Below are positions 12,633-26,861 of a DNA stretch of 32,120 bases, piece by piece. The position numbers and the translations under genes were made by a program. Under the pieces are notes generated by a model. It made no database searches and was not told where the DNA came from. It was given only the letters and a program-made list of their open reading frames with translations. Origin of the DNA: an uncultured archaeon (lineage in GTDB: Archaea; Asgardarchaeota; Thorarchaeia; Thorarchaeales; Thorarchaeaceae). The stretch lies in the NCBI GenBank assembly GCA_964590575.1, contig CAZPWM010000032.1:1-32120 (forward strand), in the 5' to 3' direction. Within the stretch, counting starts at the first letter, position 1. Each line of letters opens with the position of its first letter.

Positions 12633-14387
12633 ATGTCAGGATCGGAAGAAGAACCTAGAATTGGCGTGTTTATCTGCCACTGTGGGCATAACATAGCCGG
12701 TACTGTTGATGTCGAAGATGTAGCAAAGATGGCTTCTAAACTGCCACATGTTGTATTTTCAACAGATTCGATGTTCATGTGCTCGGATGCCGGGCAGATG
12801 CTCATCAAGGATAGCATAAAGGAGCATAAGCTCAACCGTGTGGTTGTGGCAAGCTGCTCTCCTCGAATGCACGAGCCCACATTCAGGCGAGTTGTTGAAG
12901 AGGCTGGTATGAACAGGTATCTGTTTGACCAAGTCAATCTTCGTGAGCATGTGTCATGGTGTCATATGAGAGAACCAGAACTTGCGACAGAGAAAGCCAA
13001 AGACCTTGTGAGAATGTCTGTCGCACGGGCTGCGAAGTTAGAAAATCTTCCAATCAAGACAGTAAGTGTCCTACCCAAAACAATGGTTGTGGGTGGAGGA
13101 ATTGCTGGTCTAAGAGCCTCCTTAGACATTGCTGAGAGAGGATTTGATGTTTTGCTAATCGAGAAGGCTGAAAAGCTTGGTGGCAATGTTGCTAAATGGA
13201 CACATCTATTCCCCTCAGACGAATCGGGTGCTGATATCATCCAACCTCTTATTCGTGATGTGAAAAAACACAATCGAATCAAGATACTAACAAGCAGTAA
13301 GGTGTCCGAGTTCGATGGCTATATTGGGAACTTCGGAGTTACAGTGAAGAACCTGAAGACTGAGAAGGAACAGAGGTTCGAGGTGGGTGCAGTGATTGTA
13401 ACCACTGGATTTGAACCCTTCAAACCTGCAGGTTACTATGCCTATGGTGAGTCTCCTGACATTATCACCTTGGCTGAACTCCAAGAACTTACTCCACGTG
13501 AACAACTTGTTAAACCTAGTGATGGAAAACCAGTGAAGAATGTTGTCTTCATTGGATGTGTAGGGTCTCGCGAACCAGGAGTCAAAGGTCACGAGCACTG
13601 CTCACGTCACTGTTGCTCAGCCACAGCGAAAGCCGCATCAGACTTGAGAGACCGCGTTGATGAGGTCATCGTATTATACCAAGACATTCGAACCTATGGG
13701 AAGGGTCATGAAGAGTTCCAAAGAATGGCCCGACAGAAACATGTCATTTACAGTAAGTTTCCTCTGGAAGCGCATCCTGAGATTTCTGTAAAGAAAGGCA
13801 AGATCAAGATGAAGTGGTATGACGTTCTAGCTGCTGAAGATTTGGAGTTTGAACCAGACCTTGTTGTTCTTGCCACCGCCATGATTCCCCCTGAGGATGT
13901 TGAAGAAACTTCACACATGTTCAGCCTAACTCGCAGTGGTGATGGCTTTTTCAATCCTGAGCACATCAAACTAGCTCCACTAACAACCCACACAGCTGGT
14001 GTGATGATTGCAGGAGCTGCGCAGGCAGCTAAGAACGCTTCTGAGTCAGTCATTGATGCAAGCGGCGCGGCAGCAAAGGCTGTTAGCCTCATGGCACAGG
14101 GTGAGGTTGAGATTGAATCGACGGTTTCGCATGTCATTCCTGAACTCTGTTCCAGCTGCCACACTTGTCTTACCGCTTGTCCCTATGGTGCCATCGCAAT
14201 GGATGAAACCAAGGACCCACCGGTTGCTTTTGTGACAGAGGCGAAGTGCCATGGTTGTGGAACATGTGCAGCCGCCTGCCCAAGCAGTGCAATTGTGATG
14301 TATCACTCAACAGATGACCAGATTCTAACAATGGTGGAAGCCTTTCTATGTCCTGCACCTGAGGTTGGAGGAGGCGGTTCAGCATGA
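12633..14387 (+). CDS. hdrA: HdrA-like subunit (N-terminal Cys domain, FAD domain, C-terminal ferredoxin; lacks TLDC motif and inserted ferredoxin)
   Basis: RIGVFICHCGHNIAG, MCS, ASCSPRMHE, NLREHVSW, VVGGGIAG, CSRHCC, CSSCHTCLTACP, CHGCGTCAAACP. Confidence 0.88.
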   Translation: MSGSEEEPRIGVFICHCGHNIAGTVDVEDVAKMASKLPHVVFSTDSMFMCSDAGQMLIKDSIKEHKLNRVVVASCSPRMHEPTFRRVVEEAGMNRYLFDQVNLREHVSWCHMREPELATEKAKDLVRMSVARAAKLENLPIKTVSVLPKTMVVGGGIAGLRASLDIAERGFDVLLIEKAEKLGGNVAKWTHLFPSDESGADIIQPLIRDVKKHNRIKILTSSKVSEFDGYIGNFGVTVKNLKTEKEQRFEVGAVIVTTGFEPFKPAGYYAYGESPDIITLAELQELTPREQLVKPSDGKPVKNVVFIGCVGSREPGVKGHEHCSRHCCSATAKAASDLRDRVDEVIVLYQDIRTYGKGHEEFQRMARQKHVIYSKFPLEAHPEISVKKGKIKMKWYDVLAAEDLEFEPDLVVLATAMIPPEDVEETSHMFSLTRSGDGFFNPEHIKLAPLTTHTAGVMIAGAAQAAKNASESVIDASGAAAKAVSLMAQGEVEIESTVSHVIPELCSSCHTCLTACPYGAIAMDETKDPPVAFVTEAKCHGCGTCAAACPSSAIVMYHSTDDQILTMVEAFLCPAPEVGGGGSA

Positions 14388-14830
14388 CAACAACAATGAC
14401 TGAAACTGCTGCTTCAAAGAAAGAATGGGAACCCAAGATTATGGCGTACTGCTGTAACTGGTGTTCATACGCGGGTGCTGACCTAGCAGGTACTAGCAGG
14501 ATTCAATACCCTACCAATGCAAGAATTCTACGTGTGAACTGTACTGGGCGTATCAGTCCTGAGTTCATTTTAGCTGCTCTTAATATGGGCGCAGACGGAG
14601 TACTTGTTTCCGGGTGCCACCCCGGAGATTGTCATTATACCAGTGGAAATCTCAAAGCCCGAGCACGATGGGCATTGATGGAAACTGCCATTGAACAGGC
14701 TGGAGTTGATCCTCGCAGGGTCCGACTTCAGTGGGCAAGCGCATCAGAAGCGCAGATATTCGCTGACGGTGTAAGAAAACTTACTGAACAAGTTAGAGAA
14801 CTAGGTCCAATAAGGAGGAACTGGAAATGA
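14384..14830 (+). CDS. mvhD: [2Fe-2S] MvhD/VhuD adaptor subunit
   Basis: CCNWCSYAGAD, RVNCTGR, GADGVLVSGCHPGDCHY, WASASE; all ligands are Cys codons. Confidence 0.95.
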   Translation: MTTTMTETAASKKEWEPKIMAYCCNWCSYAGADLAGTSRIQYPTNARILRVNCTGRISPEFILAALNMGADGVLVSGCHPGDCHYTSGNLKARARWALMETAIEQAGVDPRRVRLQWASASEAQIFADGVRKLTEQVRELGPIRRNWK

Positions 14831-15063
14831 GCAGAATGTTTGCACAATACTTTACTCAAAAACGTGGTGACGTTCGCAAGCAACGAAAAGCTATTGAGGA
14901 CTTCCTCAAGGGCGGTCCTGCTGCAGTATCGAAGATAGCTGAAGCAACTAAGTTTGAAACAGATCTTGTAGTCTGGAATCTCATGGGTATGCTCCGTTGG
15001 GGGCAGGTTGAGGTTGCGGGTGAAGAGGAACACGAGCTGGTATACGTACTGAAGGAGGTCTAA
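14827..15063 (+). CDS. Small winged-HTH-like protein inside the hdr-vhu operon
   Basis: 78 aa; ATGA overlap with mvhD; IEDFLKGGP-AVSKIAEAT-helix-GQVEV pattern resembles a wHTH; its 3' end carries the GGAGG SD for vhuG. Confidence 0.7.
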   Translation: MSRMFAQYFTQKRGDVRKQRKAIEDFLKGGPAAVSKIAEATKFETDLVVWNLMGMLRWGQVEVAGEEEHELVYVLKEV

Positions 15064-15065
15064 GC

Positions 15066-15989
15066 TTGGCGGATCCAGTTTCTATTGCAATGGGTCAAGG
15101 TAGCTCTTGTTGGGGATGTTTCCAGAGTTTAGTTGATATCCACCTCAACTTAGCTACAGTTCTCCCAGCACTAGAGATCAAGTACTGGCAAGCTGTTGCT
15201 GACTTTAAGCTCCATCACCTCGAGAGTTATGAGGACAAATCGATAGTTGTTGGCCTCTTCGAAGGAATGGCCCGGACTGAAGAAGACATTCACCTTCTCA
15301 AATTGATGCGAGAGAAATGCCAGGTATTGATTTCATTCGGTTCCTGTTCTTGTTTCGGCGGGATTCCGGGTCTAGCAAACTTTTCTGACATAGAGGAGTG
15401 CCTTGATGTCAAGTTTCGTGAGAATGCCACCGTGACCGGTGGAAAGGTTCCAAGTGAGAACCTGCCCGGTATTGCTCCTGTGGTTAAACCTAACACTTCC
15501 TTTGTTGATTTTGACATTTTCCTTCCAGGATGCCCACCTACATCGAAACTAATTCTCACTGCGGTAACTAAGCTACTGGCTGGGGAACCAATTGAACTCC
15601 CACCACACACAGTATGCCATTATTGCAATCGCGAGAAGAAAGAAACACCCATTGAGAAAATTCTCCGCCCCTATCAAGGGATTGCAGACCCTGACAGATG
15701 CCTGCTGGAGCAAGGTTACATCTGTGTAGGTTCCGCTACTTGGGGGTTGTGCGAAGGTCAGTGTGTGAACAAGGGTGCAACTTGCAGAGGTTGCTTTGGA
15801 CCACCTCCGCCAATAATGCAGGACCATGGTGCTAACTCGATGGCTATGCTTGGTACATACGCTCCTCTTCCACCTGAGGAGATAAAGGAACAGGTGAAGG
15901 ACCCATTGGGTACTTTCTATCGCTTCGATTATGCCACTAGTAACTTAGGAGAAATGCGAATCAAGCGTGAGGAGGTCAAGAACAGATGA
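15066..15989 (+). CDS. vhuG: Group 3c [NiFe(Se)] hydrogenase small subunit
   Basis: SCWGC, FEG, GSCSCFGGIPGL, PGCPP, TVCHYC, CLLEQGYICVG, CRGCFGP; TTG start. Confidence 0.92.
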   Translation: MADPVSIAMGQGSSCWGCFQSLVDIHLNLATVLPALEIKYWQAVADFKLHHLESYEDKSIVVGLFEGMARTEEDIHLLKLMREKCQVLISFGSCSCFGGIPGLANFSDIEECLDVKFRENATVTGGKVPSENLPGIAPVVKPNTSFVDFDIFLPGCPPTSKLILTAVTKLLAGEPIELPPHTVCHYCNREKKETPIEKILRPYQGIADPDRCLLEQGYICVGSATWGLCEGQCVNKGATCRGCFGPPPPIMQDHGANSMAMLGTYAPLPPEEIKEQVKDPLGTFYRFDYATSNLGEMRIKREEVKNR

Positions 15990-17302
15990 CCGAAGACAAA
16001 ACAATCCGAATTGATCCAGTGACTCGACTCGAAGGACATGGATCGCTCACGATAAAGCTTGGAAAGGATAACAAGATCAAAGACGTGCAGTTCAATGTGA
16101 ACTCTACTCGATTCTTTGAGAAGTTTCTTGAGGGTCGCCCAATGGAGGAGGCCCCCAGAATCGCTCCAAGAATCTGTGGTATCTGTCCAATCCCCCACCA
16201 TCTTGCATCTGTCAAGGCTGTCGAGGCGGCATGGGATGTTACTCCAACTCCAACCGCAGTCAAGCTACGTAGACTGATGATTGAGGCGAAGCAGTTCTCC
16301 TCTCATGTCATTCACTTCTATGCGCTTGCTGCTCCAGACTTCGTCTATGGACCTTTCGCAAACCCTGCAGATAGGAACGTTGCCGCGGTGTTGAGAGACT
16401 TACCGGAAGTCGCAGTACAAGCAATCAAGATGATGGAATTTGGCCAAGAGTTGATCAAGACTGTTGGTGCCAAAGCAATCCATCCAACAACTGCAATTCC
16501 AGGCGGCATGCTCACATCTCTGAAGGAAGAGGACCGTGACTTTTTCCTCGGACGCCTTGAAGAGGTCCAGCAACTCACACTGAATACTGTGGATCTAGCA
16601 AAGAAAGTCGTAACCGATTACCTAGATGTAATTACAAAGGTCGCAGTCACTCCTACATACTACATTGGTCTCTCCAACAAGGGGACACTCGATATCTATG
16701 ATGGAACTGTTCGTGTGATGGACCCAGATGGCAAGATTGTCGCTGACTTCGAACCGAAGGACTACACCAAGTACTACGGTGAACATGTAGCAAAGCACAG
16801 CTATGCAACTCATATTTACTACAAACCAGCTGGATACCCCGAAGGTATCTGGAGAGCCAATACCCTGGCACGATGCAACGTCAACGAGAGGATGGCAACG
16901 CCGCTTGCTGACGCCGCGCTCAAGGAGATGCGTGAGCTCATTGGTCGACCATCGCATCACACTTTTGCATTCCATTATGCTAGGATTGTCGAAATTGTCC
17001 AAGCGTTCGAGTCGATTGCTGGACTCCTGAATGATCCCGATATCTGTGACACTGATGTGAAAGTATCCGACGTTGAACCCAAGGCCGGTAACGGTGTTGG
17101 AATCGTAGAGGCGCCACGAGGAATTCTGATGCATAATTATGTGTCAGACGACAAGGGAATGCTTACCAAGGCAAATCTAATCGTTGCAACAAACAACAAC
17201 ATTGCTGGCATTGAGAAGAGCCTCATGACAGCAGCAAAACAGATCTTCGAAGACAATGCCCTTGAGAGCATTGTTCTTCCCGAACCAATGGTGAAGAGGT
17301 AA
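15986..17302 (+). CDS. vhuA: Group 3c hydrogenase large subunit, split type (C-terminal Ni-binding motif absent)
   Basis: PVTRLEGH, RFFEKF, L1 motif PRICGICP, EAPRG, NLIVATNNN; ends at TAA with no DPCxxCxxH. Confidence 0.93.
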   Translation: MTEDKTIRIDPVTRLEGHGSLTIKLGKDNKIKDVQFNVNSTRFFEKFLEGRPMEEAPRIAPRICGICPIPHHLASVKAVEAAWDVTPTPTAVKLRRLMIEAKQFSSHVIHFYALAAPDFVYGPFANPADRNVAAVLRDLPEVAVQAIKMMEFGQELIKTVGAKAIHPTTAIPGGMLTSLKEEDRDFFLGRLEEVQQLTLNTVDLAKKVVTDYLDVITKVAVTPTYYIGLSNKGTLDIYDGTVRVMDPDGKIVADFEPKDYTKYYGEHVAKHSYATHIYYKPAGYPEGIWRANTLARCNVNERMATPLADAALKEMRELIGRPSHHTFAFHYARIVEIVQAFESIAGLLNDPDICDTDVKVSDVEPKAGNGVGIVEAPRGILMHNYVSDDKGMLTKANLIVATNNNIAGIEKSLMTAAKQIFEDNALESIVLPEPMVKR

Positions 17303-17348
17303 AGGCCATACCTCATGATTATAAAGAAAAAAAGAAACGTGAAAAACT

Positions 17349-17501
17349 ATGTCGGAAGAAATTCCTGAAGGAATACTGAACCTCATCGAGATGGTGGTTC
17401 GGTGTTACGACTGCTGACTATCCTGCGGCGCTCATTTCGTCATTGTAGACGATGAGGGTCGCGAGATTGTCAGGAAGGAGCTTGTGACTGGCGGCGGATG
17501 A
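17349..17501 (+). CDS. vhuU: Selenocysteine-containing VhuU peptide completing the [NiFeSe] active site (absent from ORF track)
   Basis: MSEEIPEGILNLIEMVVRCYDC-U(TGA 17415-17417)-LSCGAHFVIVDDEGREIVRKELVTGGG-stop. Matches VhuU NLIE..R.YD.U.SC.AH; lies 46 nt after vhuA; SECIS-like hairpin follows. Confidence 0.93.
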
Positions 17502-17544
17502 AGACGCGGTCGTAAACTAACGGACCGGGTCTGACAACCCTGCT
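17490..17544 (+). promoter_or_regulatory. Eukaryote-like SECIS element of vhuU
   Basis: ATGA core 17498-17501 opposite TGAC 17532-17535; stem GAC/GTC, G.G mismatch, CGGTC/GACCG, GT/AC; apical AAA at 17514-17516, 12 nt from the core; lower helix GCGG/CTGC. Confidence 0.85.
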
Positions 17545-17545
17545 C

Positions 17546-17583
17546 GGGTGTGCTTGTCACACTCCTTCCCTCCTTTCTCTTTT
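17546..17583 (+). repeat. Hairpin + pyrimidine-tract element, copy R1
   Basis: GGGTGTG-CTTGT-CACACTCCTTCCCTCCTTTCTCTTTT directly after the SECIS. Confidence 0.75.
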
Positions 17584-17642
17584 CACTAATTAAGAATAGT
17601 AGAATATATGAGCAGTATAGTTACTATCGTAGTGAGAGGAGA

Positions 17643-20453: not shown

Positions 20454-20846
20454 ATGAATGAACACAAGATAGAGGCCAACAAGGCCACAATTGTCACGCT
20501 TGAGCCTGGAATGAGAAGTGTAAACATCACTTTCAAGGTCATGAGCACAGGCGACGAAAGATCGGTCGACTCCAGTAGGGATGAGGGGACACATCGGGTC
20601 CTAGATGCTGTGGTTGGCGATTCGACAGCAACAGTTCTAATGCCTGTCTGGAATGAAACAATCGACGCAATAAAAGAAGGCGGGACTTACACCCTTTCGA
20701 ATGGATACACAGGTCTTTTCAAGGGTAGTCTAAGACTTCACTTGGGAAAGTTCGGTTCCATTGTTTCGGCTGAAGAATCAATTCCTGAAGTGAACACTGA
20801 AATTGACATGTCCACTAGAGATTTCAATAGCAGTCCAACAAGTTAA
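20454..20846 (+). CDS. ssb: Single-OB-fold ssDNA-binding protein (crenarchaeal SSB/hSSB1-like), copy 1
   Basis: LEPGMRSVNITFKV, VVGDSTATVLMPVWNE, NGYTGLFKGSLRLHLGKFG. Confidence 0.85.
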   Translation: MNEHKIEANKATIVTLEPGMRSVNITFKVMSTGDERSVDSSRDEGTHRVLDAVVGDSTATVLMPVWNETIDAIKEGGTYTLSNGYTGLFKGSLRLHLGKFGSIVSAEESIPEVNTEIDMSTRDFNSSPTS

Positions 20847-21127: not shown

Positions 21128-21520
21128 ATGTATGATAACAATATAGAAGCCATTGAGGCCACTATCGCCGAGCTTAAGCCCGGAATGAAAAGTGTAAACA
21201 TCACCTTCAAGGTCATGAATACAAGTGAAGAACGAGAGGTTGAATCCCGCAAGACGGGTGAGACCTACCGAGTAGTAGATGCCCAGGTTGGAGATTCTAC
21301 AGGGACAATCCTGATGCCTATCTGGAATGAGACCATCGATTCAATAGAGGAAGGAACGACTTACATGCTTTCTAATGGATACACTGGTCTCTTCAAGGGC
21401 AATCTCAGACTTCAATTAGGGAAGTTCGGTTCAATTGCTGCAGCTGAAGAACCAATCGATGAAGTGAACTCAGAAGTAGACATGTCTGCTGAAGATCACG
21501 GTAGTCGTCCAAGATATTAG
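21128..21520 (+). CDS. ssb: Single-OB-fold ssDNA-binding protein, copy 2
   Basis: LKPGMKSVNITFKV, VGDSTGTILMPIWNE; 85/130 aa identical to copy 1 (manual count). Confidence 0.87.
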   Translation: MYDNNIEAIEATIAELKPGMKSVNITFKVMNTSEEREVESRKTGETYRVVDAQVGDSTGTILMPIWNETIDSIEEGTTYMLSNGYTGLFKGNLRLQLGKFGSIAAAEEPIDEVNSEVDMSAEDHGSRPRY

Positions 21521-23090: not shown

Positions 23091-23133
23091 CTAGCTCATT
23101 TACGATTAAATTTTGAAATCCAGAGGGTTACTT

Positions 23134-23553
23134 ATGTCCAAAGGGAATTTTGAACCTCGAATTATTGCTTTCCTCTGTAATTGGTGCAGTTATGCGGGTG
23201 CTGACTTAACGGGCACAAGTCGTATCCAATACTCACCTAATGTAAAAGCGCTCCGAGTAAATTGCTCAAGCCGCGTTGACCCAACCTTCGTGATCAAAGC
23301 CCTCATGTCGGGGGCTGATGGTGTACTTGTTGCTGGTTGTCATCCAGGAGATTGCCACTACAAATCCGGGAATCTTTACACAAGAAGAAGAGTCATGATG
23401 CTGAAGACACTTCTCGAAACGATTGGTATACCCCCAGCTAGATTACGACTGGAATGGGTGTCTGCGTCAGAGGCAATCAAGTTTGCTACCGTGGTCAATG
23501 ATTTCGTGGATGAGATCAAGGAACTAGGTCCTAGTACAATAGGAGTGAACTGA
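23134..23553 (+). CDS. mvhD: Second MvhD paralogue, heading the formate dehydrogenase operon
   Basis: FLCNWCSYAGAD, RVNCSSRV, GCHPGDCHY, WVSASE; ATG 23134 after GAGGGT. Confidence 0.93.
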   Translation: MSKGNFEPRIIAFLCNWCSYAGADLTGTSRIQYSPNVKALRVNCSSRVDPTFVIKALMSGADGVLVAGCHPGDCHYKSGNLYTRRRVMMLKTLLETIGIPPARLRLEWVSASEAIKFATVVNDFVDEIKELGPSTIGVN

Positions 23554-25587
23554 ATGATCGAGTACAAAGAGACAATCTGTCCCTACTGTAGTTGTGGTTG
23601 TGGAATCTATCTAGTGATAGAGGATGGGAAGATCATTGGTGAAGAACCTCAGAATAATCACCCAATAAACGAGGGCGGGAACTGTCCAAAAGGGAGGAAT
23701 GCATACCAGTTTCTCTATGCTGAGGACAGACTGAAGACTCCAATGATACGAAAGAACGGGAAGCTTGTGAAAGCCACATGGGATGAAGCACTCGACCTCA
23801 TCACTTCAAAACTGAAGGAGGCCGGACCCAATGAGTTTGGTCTTATCGCTTCGGGAAAGAACACGAATGAGGACGCATATGTTCTGCAGAAGTTCACACG
23901 AGTTGTAATGGGCACGAACAATGTGGAGTACTGTGGTCGATTATGTCACTCGTCTACTGCTTCGGGACTTGGCCCCACAGTTGGATCTGGTGTAATGCCT
24001 ATCTCTCAAATGGATATTGAGAATGCAGATTGTATCTTCCTAGATGGAATCAATATCAAAGAGACTTTTCCTCTTATGGCAAAGAGGGTCATGAGGGCAA
24101 AGAAAAAGGGTGCAAAGATAATCGTCATGGACCCCCGAAAGTCTATTACCGCACGTGAACTTGCTGACATCCATTTGCAATTGGAACCCGGAACAGACGT
24201 GCTTGTTCTCAACTCACTCATGAAGATTATCCTCGAAGAGGAGCTTGAGGACAAAGAATTCATCGAAGCTAGAACCACAGGGATTGAAGCACTTCGAGAA
24301 CACCTAGGCTCCTTGGACCTTAAGGAGATGTCAGATCTCTCGGGAGTTTCCATGCGCAAGCTGGACGAGGCGGCTCGTATGCTTGCCAAGGCCAAGACAT
24401 GCACGATACTGTTCAATCAAGGACTCAATCAACACATTTCTGGAACTGATGGTATCAAGGCTCTAGCAACTCTGGCTCTGATAACCGGTCAATATGGAAG
24501 ACCCGGTACTGGCATCAGTCCAACTCGTGGTCAGATCAATGGTGAAGGTACAGGGGATATGGGTTGCCTCAATGTGTTCTATCCTGGTTTCCAAAAGGTA
24601 GGAACACCAGCTGAGCCACACAAGAAATTCGCCGAACTTTGGGGGGTTGAGAATCTTCCTGACCAACCGGGGCTACCTTATACGAAGATGATTCAGCAGA
24701 CTAAGTATATGTGGATAGTAGGGACAAATCCAATGATGGCAGCTCCCGATATTGATAAGGTGCGCGAGTCACTTGAAGCAAAAGAACTTCTAATTGTTCA
24801 GGACATCTATCCGACTGAAACTGCTGAGCTAGCTGACATTGTGCTCCCTGTAGCCACATGGGTTGAGCGAGAGGGAGTTCATGCATATGTCGACCGACGA
24901 GTACAGAAAATCAACAAACTCATTGATCCACCTGGTGAGGCAAAGCCTGACTGGTGGATTGTCTGTCAGGTTGCAGAGCGGATGGGTTTCAAGAAGTATT
25001 TTGACTTTTCATCTTCAAGTGAGATATTTGAGGAGATACGAAGAGTCGTACCACCATACAAGGGACTGACCTATGAGCGAATTGAGAATACATTGGGTGG
25101 TATCCAGTGGCCTTGTCCAACGGAGGACCATCCCGGCACACCCACCTTCTTCACTCAGAAGTTCAATACACCTGACGGATTAGGTCATCTTCAAGTTGTG
25201 GACTTCAAACCACCTGCAGAGTTGACTGATGAGCAGTATCCATTCATTCTTACAACTGGCAGGAGTATCTTCCATTATCACACTGGCACCATGAGTCGTA
25301 GAACTCCGACGTTGCATTCGGAAGTTCCAAAGAACTACTGCCAGGTTAATCCTAAGGATGCTGCCGCTAAGAACATCAGAGAAGGGACAAAGATCTCTTT
25401 GAGTACCAGACGGGGTACTATCGAAGCAAAAGCTCAGGTGACTGATGACGTTCCTGAAGGGCTTATCTTTCTTCCTTTCCATTTCCATGAGTCATGTGCC
25501 AATAAGATAACGAATCCCGTGTTGGATCCAGAATGTGGGATGCCTGAATACAAGGTCTGTGCAGTCAATATTGAGGTGGTCAAATGA
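23554..25587 (+). CDS. fdhA: Formate dehydrogenase alpha subunit (Mo/W-bis-PGD), Cys type
   Basis: CPYCSCGC...CPKG, RLKTP, active-site CGRLCHS, RGQINGEG, ADIVLP, LTTGR, PEYKVCAV. Confidence 0.9.
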   Translation: MIEYKETICPYCSCGCGIYLVIEDGKIIGEEPQNNHPINEGGNCPKGRNAYQFLYAEDRLKTPMIRKNGKLVKATWDEALDLITSKLKEAGPNEFGLIASGKNTNEDAYVLQKFTRVVMGTNNVEYCGRLCHSSTASGLGPTVGSGVMPISQMDIENADCIFLDGINIKETFPLMAKRVMRAKKKGAKIIVMDPRKSITARELADIHLQLEPGTDVLVLNSLMKIILEEELEDKEFIEARTTGIEALREHLGSLDLKEMSDLSGVSMRKLDEAARMLAKAKTCTILFNQGLNQHISGTDGIKALATLALITGQYGRPGTGISPTRGQINGEGTGDMGCLNVFYPGFQKVGTPAEPHKKFAELWGVENLPDQPGLPYTKMIQQTKYMWIVGTNPMMAAPDIDKVRESLEAKELLIVQDIYPTETAELADIVLPVATWVEREGVHAYVDRRVQKINKLIDPPGEAKPDWWIVCQVAERMGFKKYFDFSSSSEIFEEIRRVVPPYKGLTYERIENTLGGIQWPCPTEDHPGTPTFFTQKFNTPDGLGHLQVVDFKPPAELTDEQYPFILTTGRSIFHYHTGTMSRRTPTLHSEVPKNYCQVNPKDAAAKNIREGTKISLSTRRGTIEAKAQVTDDVPEGLIFLPFHFHESCANKITNPVLDPECGMPEYKVCAVNIEVVK

Positions 25588-26861
25588 GTATGAATATGTT
25601 TATTGCTCGCTCAACCAATGAGAGTCTACTGGAGAGAGGAGAAACCGGTGGAGCAGTCACCGCTGTTCTCAAGTGTGCTCTTGAGAACGGGGACATTGAT
25701 GGTGTCGTTACAGTCAGGTCAAAGAAAGGCGACAGGTTTTCTGGCATACCGGTTTTAATAACAGACCCAGAGGATCTCGTTGATACAGCAGGATCCCTTC
25801 ATTGCTCATTGCCGAACATCCCCCGCTTTGTTAAGGAGTACCTAGGTGGTGCTGCCCACATGAAGTTGGCTGTAGTGGGTAAACCCTGTGATATACGAGC
25901 CATCATTGAGCTCCAGAAGAGAAAGCAGATTGACATTGACAATGTAATCCTTATCGGTCTCAATTGCACAGGAACCATCGCGCCAGCAGTTGCTAGGAAG
26001 ATGTATACTGAGGACTTCAAGGTTGATCCAAGCGATGTTATTCGCGAAGACATCGATAATGGAGAGCTGACGATTACTCTGAAGGATGGAACTACAAAAT
26101 CAAAGGACCTTGCTAAACTGGAAAAGAAGGGTTTGGGTCGTCGAGAGAATTGCAGACGCTGCGAGTATAACATCCCTACCTTTGCAGACTTGGCATTTGG
26201 CAAATGGGGGACTGAGGATCTCGAAGATGTTGGGACTTTCGTTGAAGTGCGGACTGAGAAAGGAAAGACTCTGCTTGATAGAGCCATCGATAAGAAGTGC
26301 ATCGAAGTCACTACTCCATCAAAGATAGGCATCGAAACAAGGGAGCAAAAGGATAAGACAGCAATCGAAAGTGCTAAGGAATGGAGAGAACACGATTTCA
26401 GTCCTCTACTCAAAATGGACCTTCCAGAACGTTACAAGTACTGGACAGAAGAGTTCAGAAAATGCATCAAGTGCTTTGGTTGCCGAGACGCATGTCCAAT
26501 TTGCTACTGTGAAACATGTCTGCTTGAAGCCAATAGAGAGTTTCTTGTTGGTGGTGAAGTCCCTCCCAATGGTATATTTCCTATAACTAGGCTTGCACAT
26601 GTTGCTGATTCGTGCGTTGGTTGTGGACAGTGTCAGGATGCTTGTCCAATGGAGCTACCTCTATCGAAATTATTCACTCTCATGAACTCACAACTCAATG
26701 AGGTATTCGACTATGAACCAGGAGTTGATGTTGAGGAACGACCTCCAACAACGGTAGCCAGAGATGAGGAACTACAAATAGATGATACATTTCTGAACAT
26801 CACAAGCGCACTCAAAAGAAATCATGAGAAGAAAGAGGAAGTCATGACGGGTGGTAAATAA
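25584..26861 (+). CDS. fdhB: Formate dehydrogenase beta subunit (FrhB/FdhB F420-binding fold + C-terminal ferredoxin)
   Basis: GGAVT, AGSLHC, GKPCD, IGLNCTGT, RRENCRRC, CIKCFGCRDACPICYC, CVGCGQCQDACP. Confidence 0.9.
   Translation: MSMNMFIARSTNESLLERGETGGAVTAVLKCALENGDIDGVVTVRSKKGDRFSGIPVLITDPEDLVDTAGSLHCSLPNIPRFVKEYLGGAAHMKLAVVGKPCDIRAIIELQKRKQIDIDNVILIGLNCTGTIAPAVARKMYTEDFKVDPSDVIREDIDNGELTITLKDGTTKSKDLAKLEKKGLGRRENCRRCEYNIPTFADLAFGKWGTEDLEDVGTFVEVRTEKGKTLLDRAIDKKCIEVTTPSKIGIETREQKDKTAIESAKEWREHDFSPLLKMDLPERYKYWTEEFRKCIKCFGCRDACPICYCETCLLEANREFLVGGEVPPNGIFPITRLAHVADSCVGCGQCQDACPMELPLSKLFTLMNSQLNEVFDYEPGVDVEERPPTTVARDEELQIDDTFLNITSALKRNHEKKEEVMTGGK

Follow-up and report, generated by a model that had tools for sequence, protein, structure and literature searches.

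The window considered here, i.e., the whole 32,120-nt stretch of Thorarchaeota DNA that was analysed, contains an hdr-mvh-vhu gene cluster whose vhuU-type gene has an in-frame UGA and terminates inside a predicted SECIS element. The genes and features that frame this element are the following:

12633-14387: hdrA, in its Cys form
14384-14830: mvhD, in its Cys form
14827-15063: an ORF of 78 aa between mvhD and the gene for the hydrogenase small subunit, with a 4-nt overlap with each neighbour
15066-15989: hydrogenase small subunit
15986-17302: truncated large subunit, NiFeSe_Hases in Pfam (vhuA)
17349-17501, + strand: vhuU-type gene, 50 codons including that for Sec, plus the stop codon; its ATG start is at 17349
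17415-17417, + strand: Sec UGA codon
17570-17585, + strand: pyrimidine/U-rich tail, a conserved C/T-rich run in alignment A1 (see below)

No Pfam match was found for the 78-aa ORF at 14827-15063. The same holds for the 50-aa vhuU product by itself, and the vhuU name therefore rests on motif and synteny. At the Sec site the translated frame reads R-C-Y-D-C-U-L-S-C-G-A-H, and the product is predicted to be the C-terminal piece, carrying the Ni site, of a split [NiFeSe] hydrogenase large subunit. When the large subunit was used as a query against GTDB species genomes, 33 loci were recovered at 75-96% identity, most of them labelled Thorarchaeota. Three of these end before vhuU, so that the vhuU set consists of 30 loci and the window (31 sequences, alignment A1). 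Throughout this set the Sec codon is TGA and takes the place of the first Cys in the C-terminal metal-binding motif, and the pattern D-C-U-x-x-C-x-x-H is kept (31/31 in each case). In addition, all 30 related loci share with the window a Sec TGA combined with a TGA stop that lies inside ATGA. The Sec UGA and the stop are separated by 84 nt in 21 of the 31 loci and by 96 nt in the others.

Codon choice in vhuU is strikingly restricted. Around the Sec codon (window 17412-17423), synonymous sites are nearly frozen, with GAC in 30/31, TGC in 31/31 and CTA, for a six-fold Leu, in 30/31 loci. All 31 loci have A as the third base of the last sense codon, irrespective of whether it is GGA (26), GCA (3) or GAA (2). 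Glycine at this last codon is thus written GGA in 26/26 cases, and elsewhere in vhuU GGC is used in 24/24, AAG in 31/31 and GTG in 30/31 cases. This codon usage therefore points to a constraint at the RNA level.

The genome from which the window comes appears equipped for Sec decoding, as it has a tRNA-Sec (C120:2154-2244) and a Sec-containing selD on contig C4, with the motif H-G-U-S-C-K. Other candidate selenoprotein genes gave negative results: none of the 10 FlpD/MvhD paralogues matched in the genome has an in-frame stop, its second vhuA paralogue (C158) has no vhuU directly downstream, and neither do 10 further vhuA-type genes, among which no Cys-form negative control was obtained. The genome encodes two L7Ae-family proteins, the usual number, and nothing among these genes points to a dedicated SECIS binder. 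To our knowledge, no binding protein has been reported for archaeal 3' SECIS elements.

At the transcript level, contigs from four RNA libraries (X17, X19, X21, and X22), in which DNA carry-over is possible, bridge vhuA and vhuU. This suggests, albeit weakly, that the mRNA is probably not short, as opposed to what the initial annotation of this DNA had stated. The contigs covering vhuA-vhuU end at 17501-17547, and such contig ends are no proof of true 3' ends. The pyrimidine/U-rich tail at 17570-17585 is a possible archaeal termination tract. In one contig of run X17, the vhuA-vhuU spacer (window 17292-17355) is swapped for 27 other letters, and this contig probably comes from a relative with another intergenic region.

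The predicted SECIS itself straddles the end of vhuU and comprises:

17498-17501, + strand: AUGA, the 5' half of the SECIS core, invariant in 31/31 loci; its UGA (17499-17501) is the vhuU stop codon
17503-17511 with 17523-17531, + strand: P2, the SECIS upper helix, 9 bp, with a G.G mismatch at 17506/17528
17512-17522, + strand: apical loop of P2, 11 nt, GUAAACUAACG, with AAA at 17514-17516
17533-17534, + strand: GA, the 3' half of the SECIS core; GA in 30/31 sequences and AA in L030

Its consensus geometry is AUGA, one N, a 9-bp helix, an 11-nt loop, one N, GA and C, this C (17535, right after the core GA) being invariant. The P2 loop, GUAAACUAACG, begins with GUAAA and has G as its last base; the AA columns are invariant in the 31-sequence alignment, and some clades have loops of 8 nt. 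The initial annotation had placed ATGA at 17498-17501, the AAA 12 nt further on and a 3' TGA opposite, all of which are exact, and the reading frame confirms that the core UGA is the vhuU terminator. Its tandem GA/GA core is likewise present as sequence, with AUGA in every locus and the 3' GA in all but one. More generally, the core and the AAA are invariant or nearly so among orthologues, so that the lack of conservation that would have spoken against the element was not seen. The upper helix, in contrast, is shorter than the ~11 bp first proposed. While G17512-C17521 and U17513-A17520 do lengthen it to ~11 bp in the single-sequence minimum free energy (MFE) fold, and pair 50/60 is always G-C or G-U, pair 51/59 is unpaired in 15/31 sequences; for this reason the extension was left out of the conserved set, and the conserved helix is of 9 bp. 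The 3'-side TGA (17532-17534) is in frame with vhuU in the window, as had been noted, but is not conserved, since its U is found in only 12/31 loci. Accordingly, the A17502-U17532 pair below P2 is present in only 12/31 sequences.

The segment 17490-17544 folds at -25.4 kcal/mol (z -3.8), with 0/200 shuffles as stable. In a permissive Rfam search of 17380-17640 (261 nt), the eukaryotic model SECIS_1 (RF00031) was the top one of three weak matches and aligned over its full length to exactly 17490-17544, with 19.2 bits against a gathering score of 35 and an E-value of 0.27. The suggested check against a eukaryotic SECIS model was thus positive as to the top match and its extent, but not as to the gathering threshold, and no Rfam family reaches gathering level anywhere in the window. 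A kink-turn is made up of a C stem, a 3-nt bulge, tandem sheared G.A/A.G pairs and an NC stem. Of these, the vhuU element has the tandem GA/GA as sequence and P2 as an NC stem; its C stem is reduced to G(col 34)-C(col 74), to which variable pairs or the junction described below may be added, and a regular UCC/GGA C stem fits in the selD element. The AUGA...GA core may be of the kink-turn type.

Comparative data point to conservation of this structure. RNAalifold applied to A1 predicts the SECIS upper helix, with 7-9 double changes at each of four pairs. P2 has six of its nine pairs changed on both sides, a check on covariation having been suggested in the initial annotation; 94.5% of its cells are paired over the 31 sequences, and the hairpin forms in 31/31 full-length MFE folds. 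For the named structure as a whole, 93.4% of the A1 cells are paired, versus 33-52% when the partners are slid, and 55 cells show changes on both sides versus 19.5 +/- 3.4 in shuffles; none of 500 shuffles reaches 55, a figure that overstates independence, and hence significance, because the A1 sequences are mutually related. A covariance model restricted to the core (R1, built from alignment A3) was also run against the genome of the window. The sole significant hit was vhuU, matching itself (E 5e-18); the ten others, with E-values of 0.04-10, fall within ORFs or lack a selenoprotein context. R1 missed the selD element of the same genome and is therefore too gene-specific for finding other SECIS elements. 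A scan of the genome with a loose AUGA-stem-AAA-GA regular expression was dropped, as nearly all of its 101 candidates were noise.

Below the core, the element extends into the coding sequence through additional helices:

17473-17480, + strand: P0 5' strand, GGAAGGAG, in the R-K-E codons, pairing with 17562-17569
17562-17569, + strand: P0 3' strand, CUCCUUCC, pairing with 17473-17480
17484-17493, + strand: P1 5' strand, in the V-T-G-G codons, pairing with 17551-17560
17551-17560, + strand: P1 3' strand, pairing with 17484-17493
17537-17549, + strand: P3, a small ACCC/GGGU hairpin between the 3' GA and P1, inside the junction

P0 has 92.7% of its cells paired over the 31 sequences and appears in the MFE fold of a 186-nt stretch (17405-17590). 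Three pairs of P1 are changed on both sides, and P3 reaches 97.6% of cells paired, its pair 77/89 being AU in 25, GU in 3, GC in 2 and CG in one sequence. The SECIS is thus predicted to be housed in a three-way junction that is conserved and takes its 5' strands from the last ~10 vhuU codons. A canonical helix I under the core (columns 29-35 with 78-83) is equally compatible with the alignment, almost all of its columns being invariant; it is the choice of both the single-sequence MFE fold and the Rfam alignment, and it excludes P3. The covariation, however, falls on the three-way junction alternative (P1 and P3). The 186-nt stretch as a whole folds at -75.9 kcal/mol (z -4.25, 0/200 shuffles as stable), and this fold shows P0, P1, P2, and P3 together with H1, a hairpin on the Sec codon that is discussed further below.

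This arrangement has a possible consequence for termination. As the 5' strands of P0 and P1 coincide with the last ~10 codons, a ribosome moving on from the Sec codon would have to unwind the SECIS progressively. Once the stop UGA occupies the A site, the core could not exist, and this UGA would then be read as a stop. The base contexts agree with such a melt-and-terminate logic, as the base following the UGA is C at the Sec codon and A at the stop, in 31/31 loci each. It is very unlikely that the stop UGA in the core is instead partly decoded as Sec, which would give a C-terminally extended VhuU ending at the next in-frame stop (17532-17534). While the window does have this downstream TGA, and the stop UGA lies on the same mRNA as a recoded UGA, 84 nt upstream, the variable U of the second TGA means that there is no conserved extension frame, the downstream region evolves as paired RNA and not as codons, and the two UGAs differ in their contexts as just described.

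Neither the overlap nor the melting argument is new. Mariotti 2016 (PMC4989117) already reported that AUGA doubles as the UGA stop in Lokiarchaeota VhuU.1, and argued, by reference to the minimal distance of eukaryotic SECIS elements, that such stops would be too close to the SECIS to be recoded; Huang 2024 (PMC11227280) further mentions that UGA stops often overlap AUGA. As both points are in print in the text of these papers, they are to be regarded as already known. The stop-in-core SECIS of the vhuU studied here is real but known in kind, and the locus is one more member.

The same overlap recurs in selD, another selenoprotein gene. Among 30 selD loci fetched from Thorarchaeia, 29 have the Sec motif, and in all 29 (hence 29/30 overall) the stop TGA lies inside ATGA (18) or GTGA (11). 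The helix following the selD stop has 7/7 pairs changed on both sides. In the genome of the window, the selD stop TGA is part of cccATGAtt, and a type-II-like hairpin comes after it (G000:C4 62787-62840, i.e., L050:2399-2452). A second, highly conserved hairpin was observed directly after the selD SECIS, ~40-70 nt past the stop (L059-L088), with the sequence GAGGAYUGCYG ... CRGCCGGUCUC. Its base uses the 3' GA of the core, and the two structures may therefore compete.

In order to cover a wider range of vhuU genes, 40 stretches downstream of vhuA-type genes were taken from other Asgard families and from Thorarchaeia paralogues, 29 of which have the vhuU Sec motif. The overlap, kept in 31/31 Thorarchaeota loci, is also found in 23 of these 29, which stop with TGA inside NTGA (ATGA in 18, TTGA in 4, CTGA in one), and is thus widespread in Asgard vhuU. 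A strict script test for the helix plus GA/AA was passed by 18 of the 23, while the other five, with a bulge or an offset, were judged by eye. The remaining six loci have a TAA stop and a SECIS further downstream, which shows that the overlap can be dispensed with. Sec UGA and stop lie 84 nt apart in 28 of the 29 loci and 96 nt apart in the other one, and this spacing is maintained even with a TAA stop and a downstream SECIS. As to the variants of the core, UUGA is found at the vhuU stop in one Asgard family (f19, L092-L095) and CUGA in L111 (family f7), with the hairpin and the 3' GA in their usual places; the core variants given in the text of PMC4989117 and PMC11227280 are only AUGA and GUGA.

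These data bear on the possibility that the structure is only a transcription terminator or a 3' stabiliser of the hdr-mvh-vhu operon, with AUGA, GA and AAA being incidental. A pyrimidine/U-rich run does follow the structure, RNA-library contigs end at 17501-17547, and the sequences of the upper helix vary freely, as those of terminator stems do. However, AUGA, AAA and GA show little or no variation although the stem is variable, the last codon keeps a final A for each of three amino acids, the core-helix-GA design recurs after selD, and the top Rfam match is SECIS_1. We therefore give hardly any credence to this explanation. Judging from conservation, gene context and the Sec machinery of the genome, the 3' element is very probably a SECIS of the Asgard, eukaryote-like type that directs Sec insertion at UGA 17415-17417, 84 nt upstream.

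This assignment is consistent with the published Asgard elements; as stated in the initial annotation, such elements have been described in Lokiarchaeota (PMC4989117) and in Thorarchaeia (PMC11227280). The lokiSECIS consists, according to the text of the former, of AUGA, a 9-bp stem, an 11-nt A-rich loop with G as its last base, and GA (AA in VhuU). The element of the window resembles the VhuU.1 version in its AUGA core coinciding with the vhuU stop, 9-bp stem, 11-nt loop with a final G, and 3' GA/AA, and loci of the Loki-like family f9 have exactly this VhuU.1 arrangement as described there. In contrast to lokiSECIS (PMC4989117), the loop of the window begins with GUAAA and not with AAAAA, there is one extra N.N position (A17502/N17532) between core and helix, and the lower part is a conserved three-way junction made from coding sequence. 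The element of the window also matches the eSECIS-like type I of Thorarchaeia frhA, from the same clade and gene family (PMC11227280). Huang 2024 reports that most Thorarchaeia frhA loops begin with G[U/G]AAA, a start that the window shares together with the AUGA_GA core, and that the frhA lower stem has the pairs [U/C]GG_C[C/U][A/G], which match columns 27-29 with 93-95 of P1 in the window; for Thorarchaeia selD, GUGA_GA is given. The sequence and context features that mark an eSECIS-like or lokiSECIS type I element are found here: AUGA 5' of the stem, a 9-bp stem with an 11-nt loop of the appropriate start and end, GA 3' of the stem, a position at the end of a gene that contains an in-frame Sec UGA, and a tRNA-Sec and a Sec-containing selD in the genome. 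SBP2 was not found in Asgard archaea, as reported in the text of both papers (PMC4989117, PMC11227280).

With the eukaryotic SECIS form 1 (RF00031), the element has in common the AUGA/GA quartet, a helix of ~10 bp, an unpaired apical AAA and a lower helix. Unlike in eukaryotic SECIS elements, its core and the 5' strands of its lower helices lie inside the coding sequence and not in the 3' UTR. Its likeness to euryarchaeal SECIS elements lies in its position 3' of the Sec codon, its presence in an archaeal hydrogenase gene and a similar distance to the UGA, which is 88 nt in M. maripaludis fruA (PMC9622424). It differs from them by an upper helix of 9 bp, versus three G-C pairs, and by the absence from the consensus structure of the GAA/A asymmetric bulge between two stems, in agreement with the initial distinction from the Methanococcus SECIS.

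The second structure of this mRNA lies at the Sec codon itself:

17414-17473, + strand: H1, a long hairpin in the vhuU coding sequence, at whose base C-UGA-C pairs with G-UCA-G

H1 is 21-32 bp long and built from the codons of the C-terminal extension, with the Sec UGA at its base. In the window it folds at -33.5 kcal/mol (z -4.41, 0/200 shuffles as stable). Across the 31 Thorarchaeota loci, native folds range from -26.6 to -48.7 kcal/mol, while synonymous recodings (200 per locus, drawn for all loci from the codon usage of the window, which is a limitation) have means of -13 to -22, giving native z-scores of -2.2 to -6.6. Recodings as stable as the native sequence numbered 0 in 29 loci, one in L020 and three in L023. 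The 12-nt insertion present in some loci merely extends the H1 stem. On alignment A4, 94.3% of the H1 cells are paired, versus 28-59% with partners slid; three pairs, chiefly in one clade, are changed on both sides. All three bases of the Sec UGA are paired in 21/31 MFE structures, and at least two of them in 31/31. The apical loops of H1 differ between loci and are not conserved.

The same recoding test applied to the Sec regions of 29 selD loci gave z of about 0 in 28, the other locus standing at 0/100; the H1 effect is therefore gene-specific. H1-like hairpins occur in several other Asgard families (z -1.7 to -4.4 by dinucleotide shuffles). They are missing from the Loki-like family f9, in which nine loci have z-scores of -0.9 to +0.9 and one of -2.1 in the same kind of test; vhuU of the window is thus set apart from f9 by its long hairpin at the Sec UGA. 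This absence fits the RNAz report by Mariotti of nothing else in Loki, as given in the text of PMC4989117. H1 is not described in the text of PMC4989117, PMC11227280 or PMC13188914, and no paper on it was among the matches listed for literature on 'redefinition element', selenocysteine and archaea. Likewise, P0, P3 and the Sec-codon hairpin are not described in the text of PMC11227280, whose search covered, for each gene, the last 30 nt before its 3' end and the 600 nt after it; its Tables S4-S6 and Figs S10-S12 may hold more.

Could H1 be the true recoding signal, akin to a bacterial SECIS, with the 3' element being an accessory? In bacteria, the SECIS hairpin comes right after the UGA, its small apical loop has a conserved G/U, and the winged-helix domains of SelB bind it (PMC13188914). 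H1 is extremely stable and conserved, and the UGA at the base of its stem recalls the bacterial position. Nonetheless, its variable loops set it apart from the bacterial element, and PF09107, the winged-helix domain of bacterial SelB, went undetected in this 91% complete genome; moreover, selD carries Sec without such a hairpin (z about 0 in 28/29 loci), and f9 has no H1 yet keeps the 3' SECIS. For the first three of these reasons a bacterial-type mechanism for H1 is unlikely, and we consider it improbable that H1 is the recoding signal in place of the 3' SECIS.

H1 could rather serve in ribosome pausing, in positioning of the Sec codon or in mRNA stability. A parallel may be drawn with the Sec redefinition element (SRE) of eukaryotic SEPN1, a stable hairpin in the coding sequence at or just after the Sec UGA. 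In comparison with the SRE, H1 begins at the UGA itself, is of 21-32 bp, lacks loop conservation and occurs together with a 3' SECIS. How the coding sequence can accommodate such a hairpin may be related to [NiFe] hydrogenase maturation, in which the C-terminal extension is cleaved off after the Ni-site His. The 21 vhuU codons that follow this His presumably correspond to the cleaved extension, which would explain that they are free for RNA structure.

Taken together with the 3' SECIS, H1 allows a broader and more tentative reading, which we regard as possible rather than probable: the 3' half of the Thorarchaeia vhuU mRNA (~170 nt, beginning at the Sec UGA and ending with the U-rich tail) may function as one integrated recoding module. 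H1 would sequester the Sec UGA and adjoin the long lower stem P0/P1, made of coding sequence, which would in turn carry the kink-turn SECIS within the three-way junction. H1 would act in pausing or positioning, in the manner of an SRE or of the stem of a bacterial SECIS, and set the Sec codon at the foot of the SECIS. The functions assigned here to H1 and to the three-way junction are suggested by their positions and conservation. Such a module, if real, would combine bacterial-style and eukaryote-style logic in one mRNA.

Asgard SECIS elements are a proposed link between archaeal and eukaryotic selenocysteine decoding. In this context, two aspects of the present data are possibly useful, namely that the overlap is invariant in Thorarchaeia vhuU and present in 29/30 selD among the loci searched, and that there is extra conserved RNA structure inside the vhuU coding sequence, in the form of the lower helices and H1. 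The last 28 vhuU codons appear to be shaped both by the encoded protein and by the folding of the RNA. The lower helices and H1 are the part that deserves a second look from a specialist, and both offer mutable targets for the existing Bla reporter of M. maripaludis.

Further along the window, two other gene groups were noted. Tandem paralogous ORFs of 130 aa at 20454-20846 and 21128-21520 are alike in MNEHKIEANKATIV... and MYDNNIEAIEATIA... The region 23113-26861 contains a second mvhD, again in its Cys form, then a 677-aa ORF with an N-terminal Cys cluster and a 425-aa Cys-rich ORF, neither of which has an in-frame TGA. By eye, these last two look like the alpha and beta subunits of a formate dehydrogenase.
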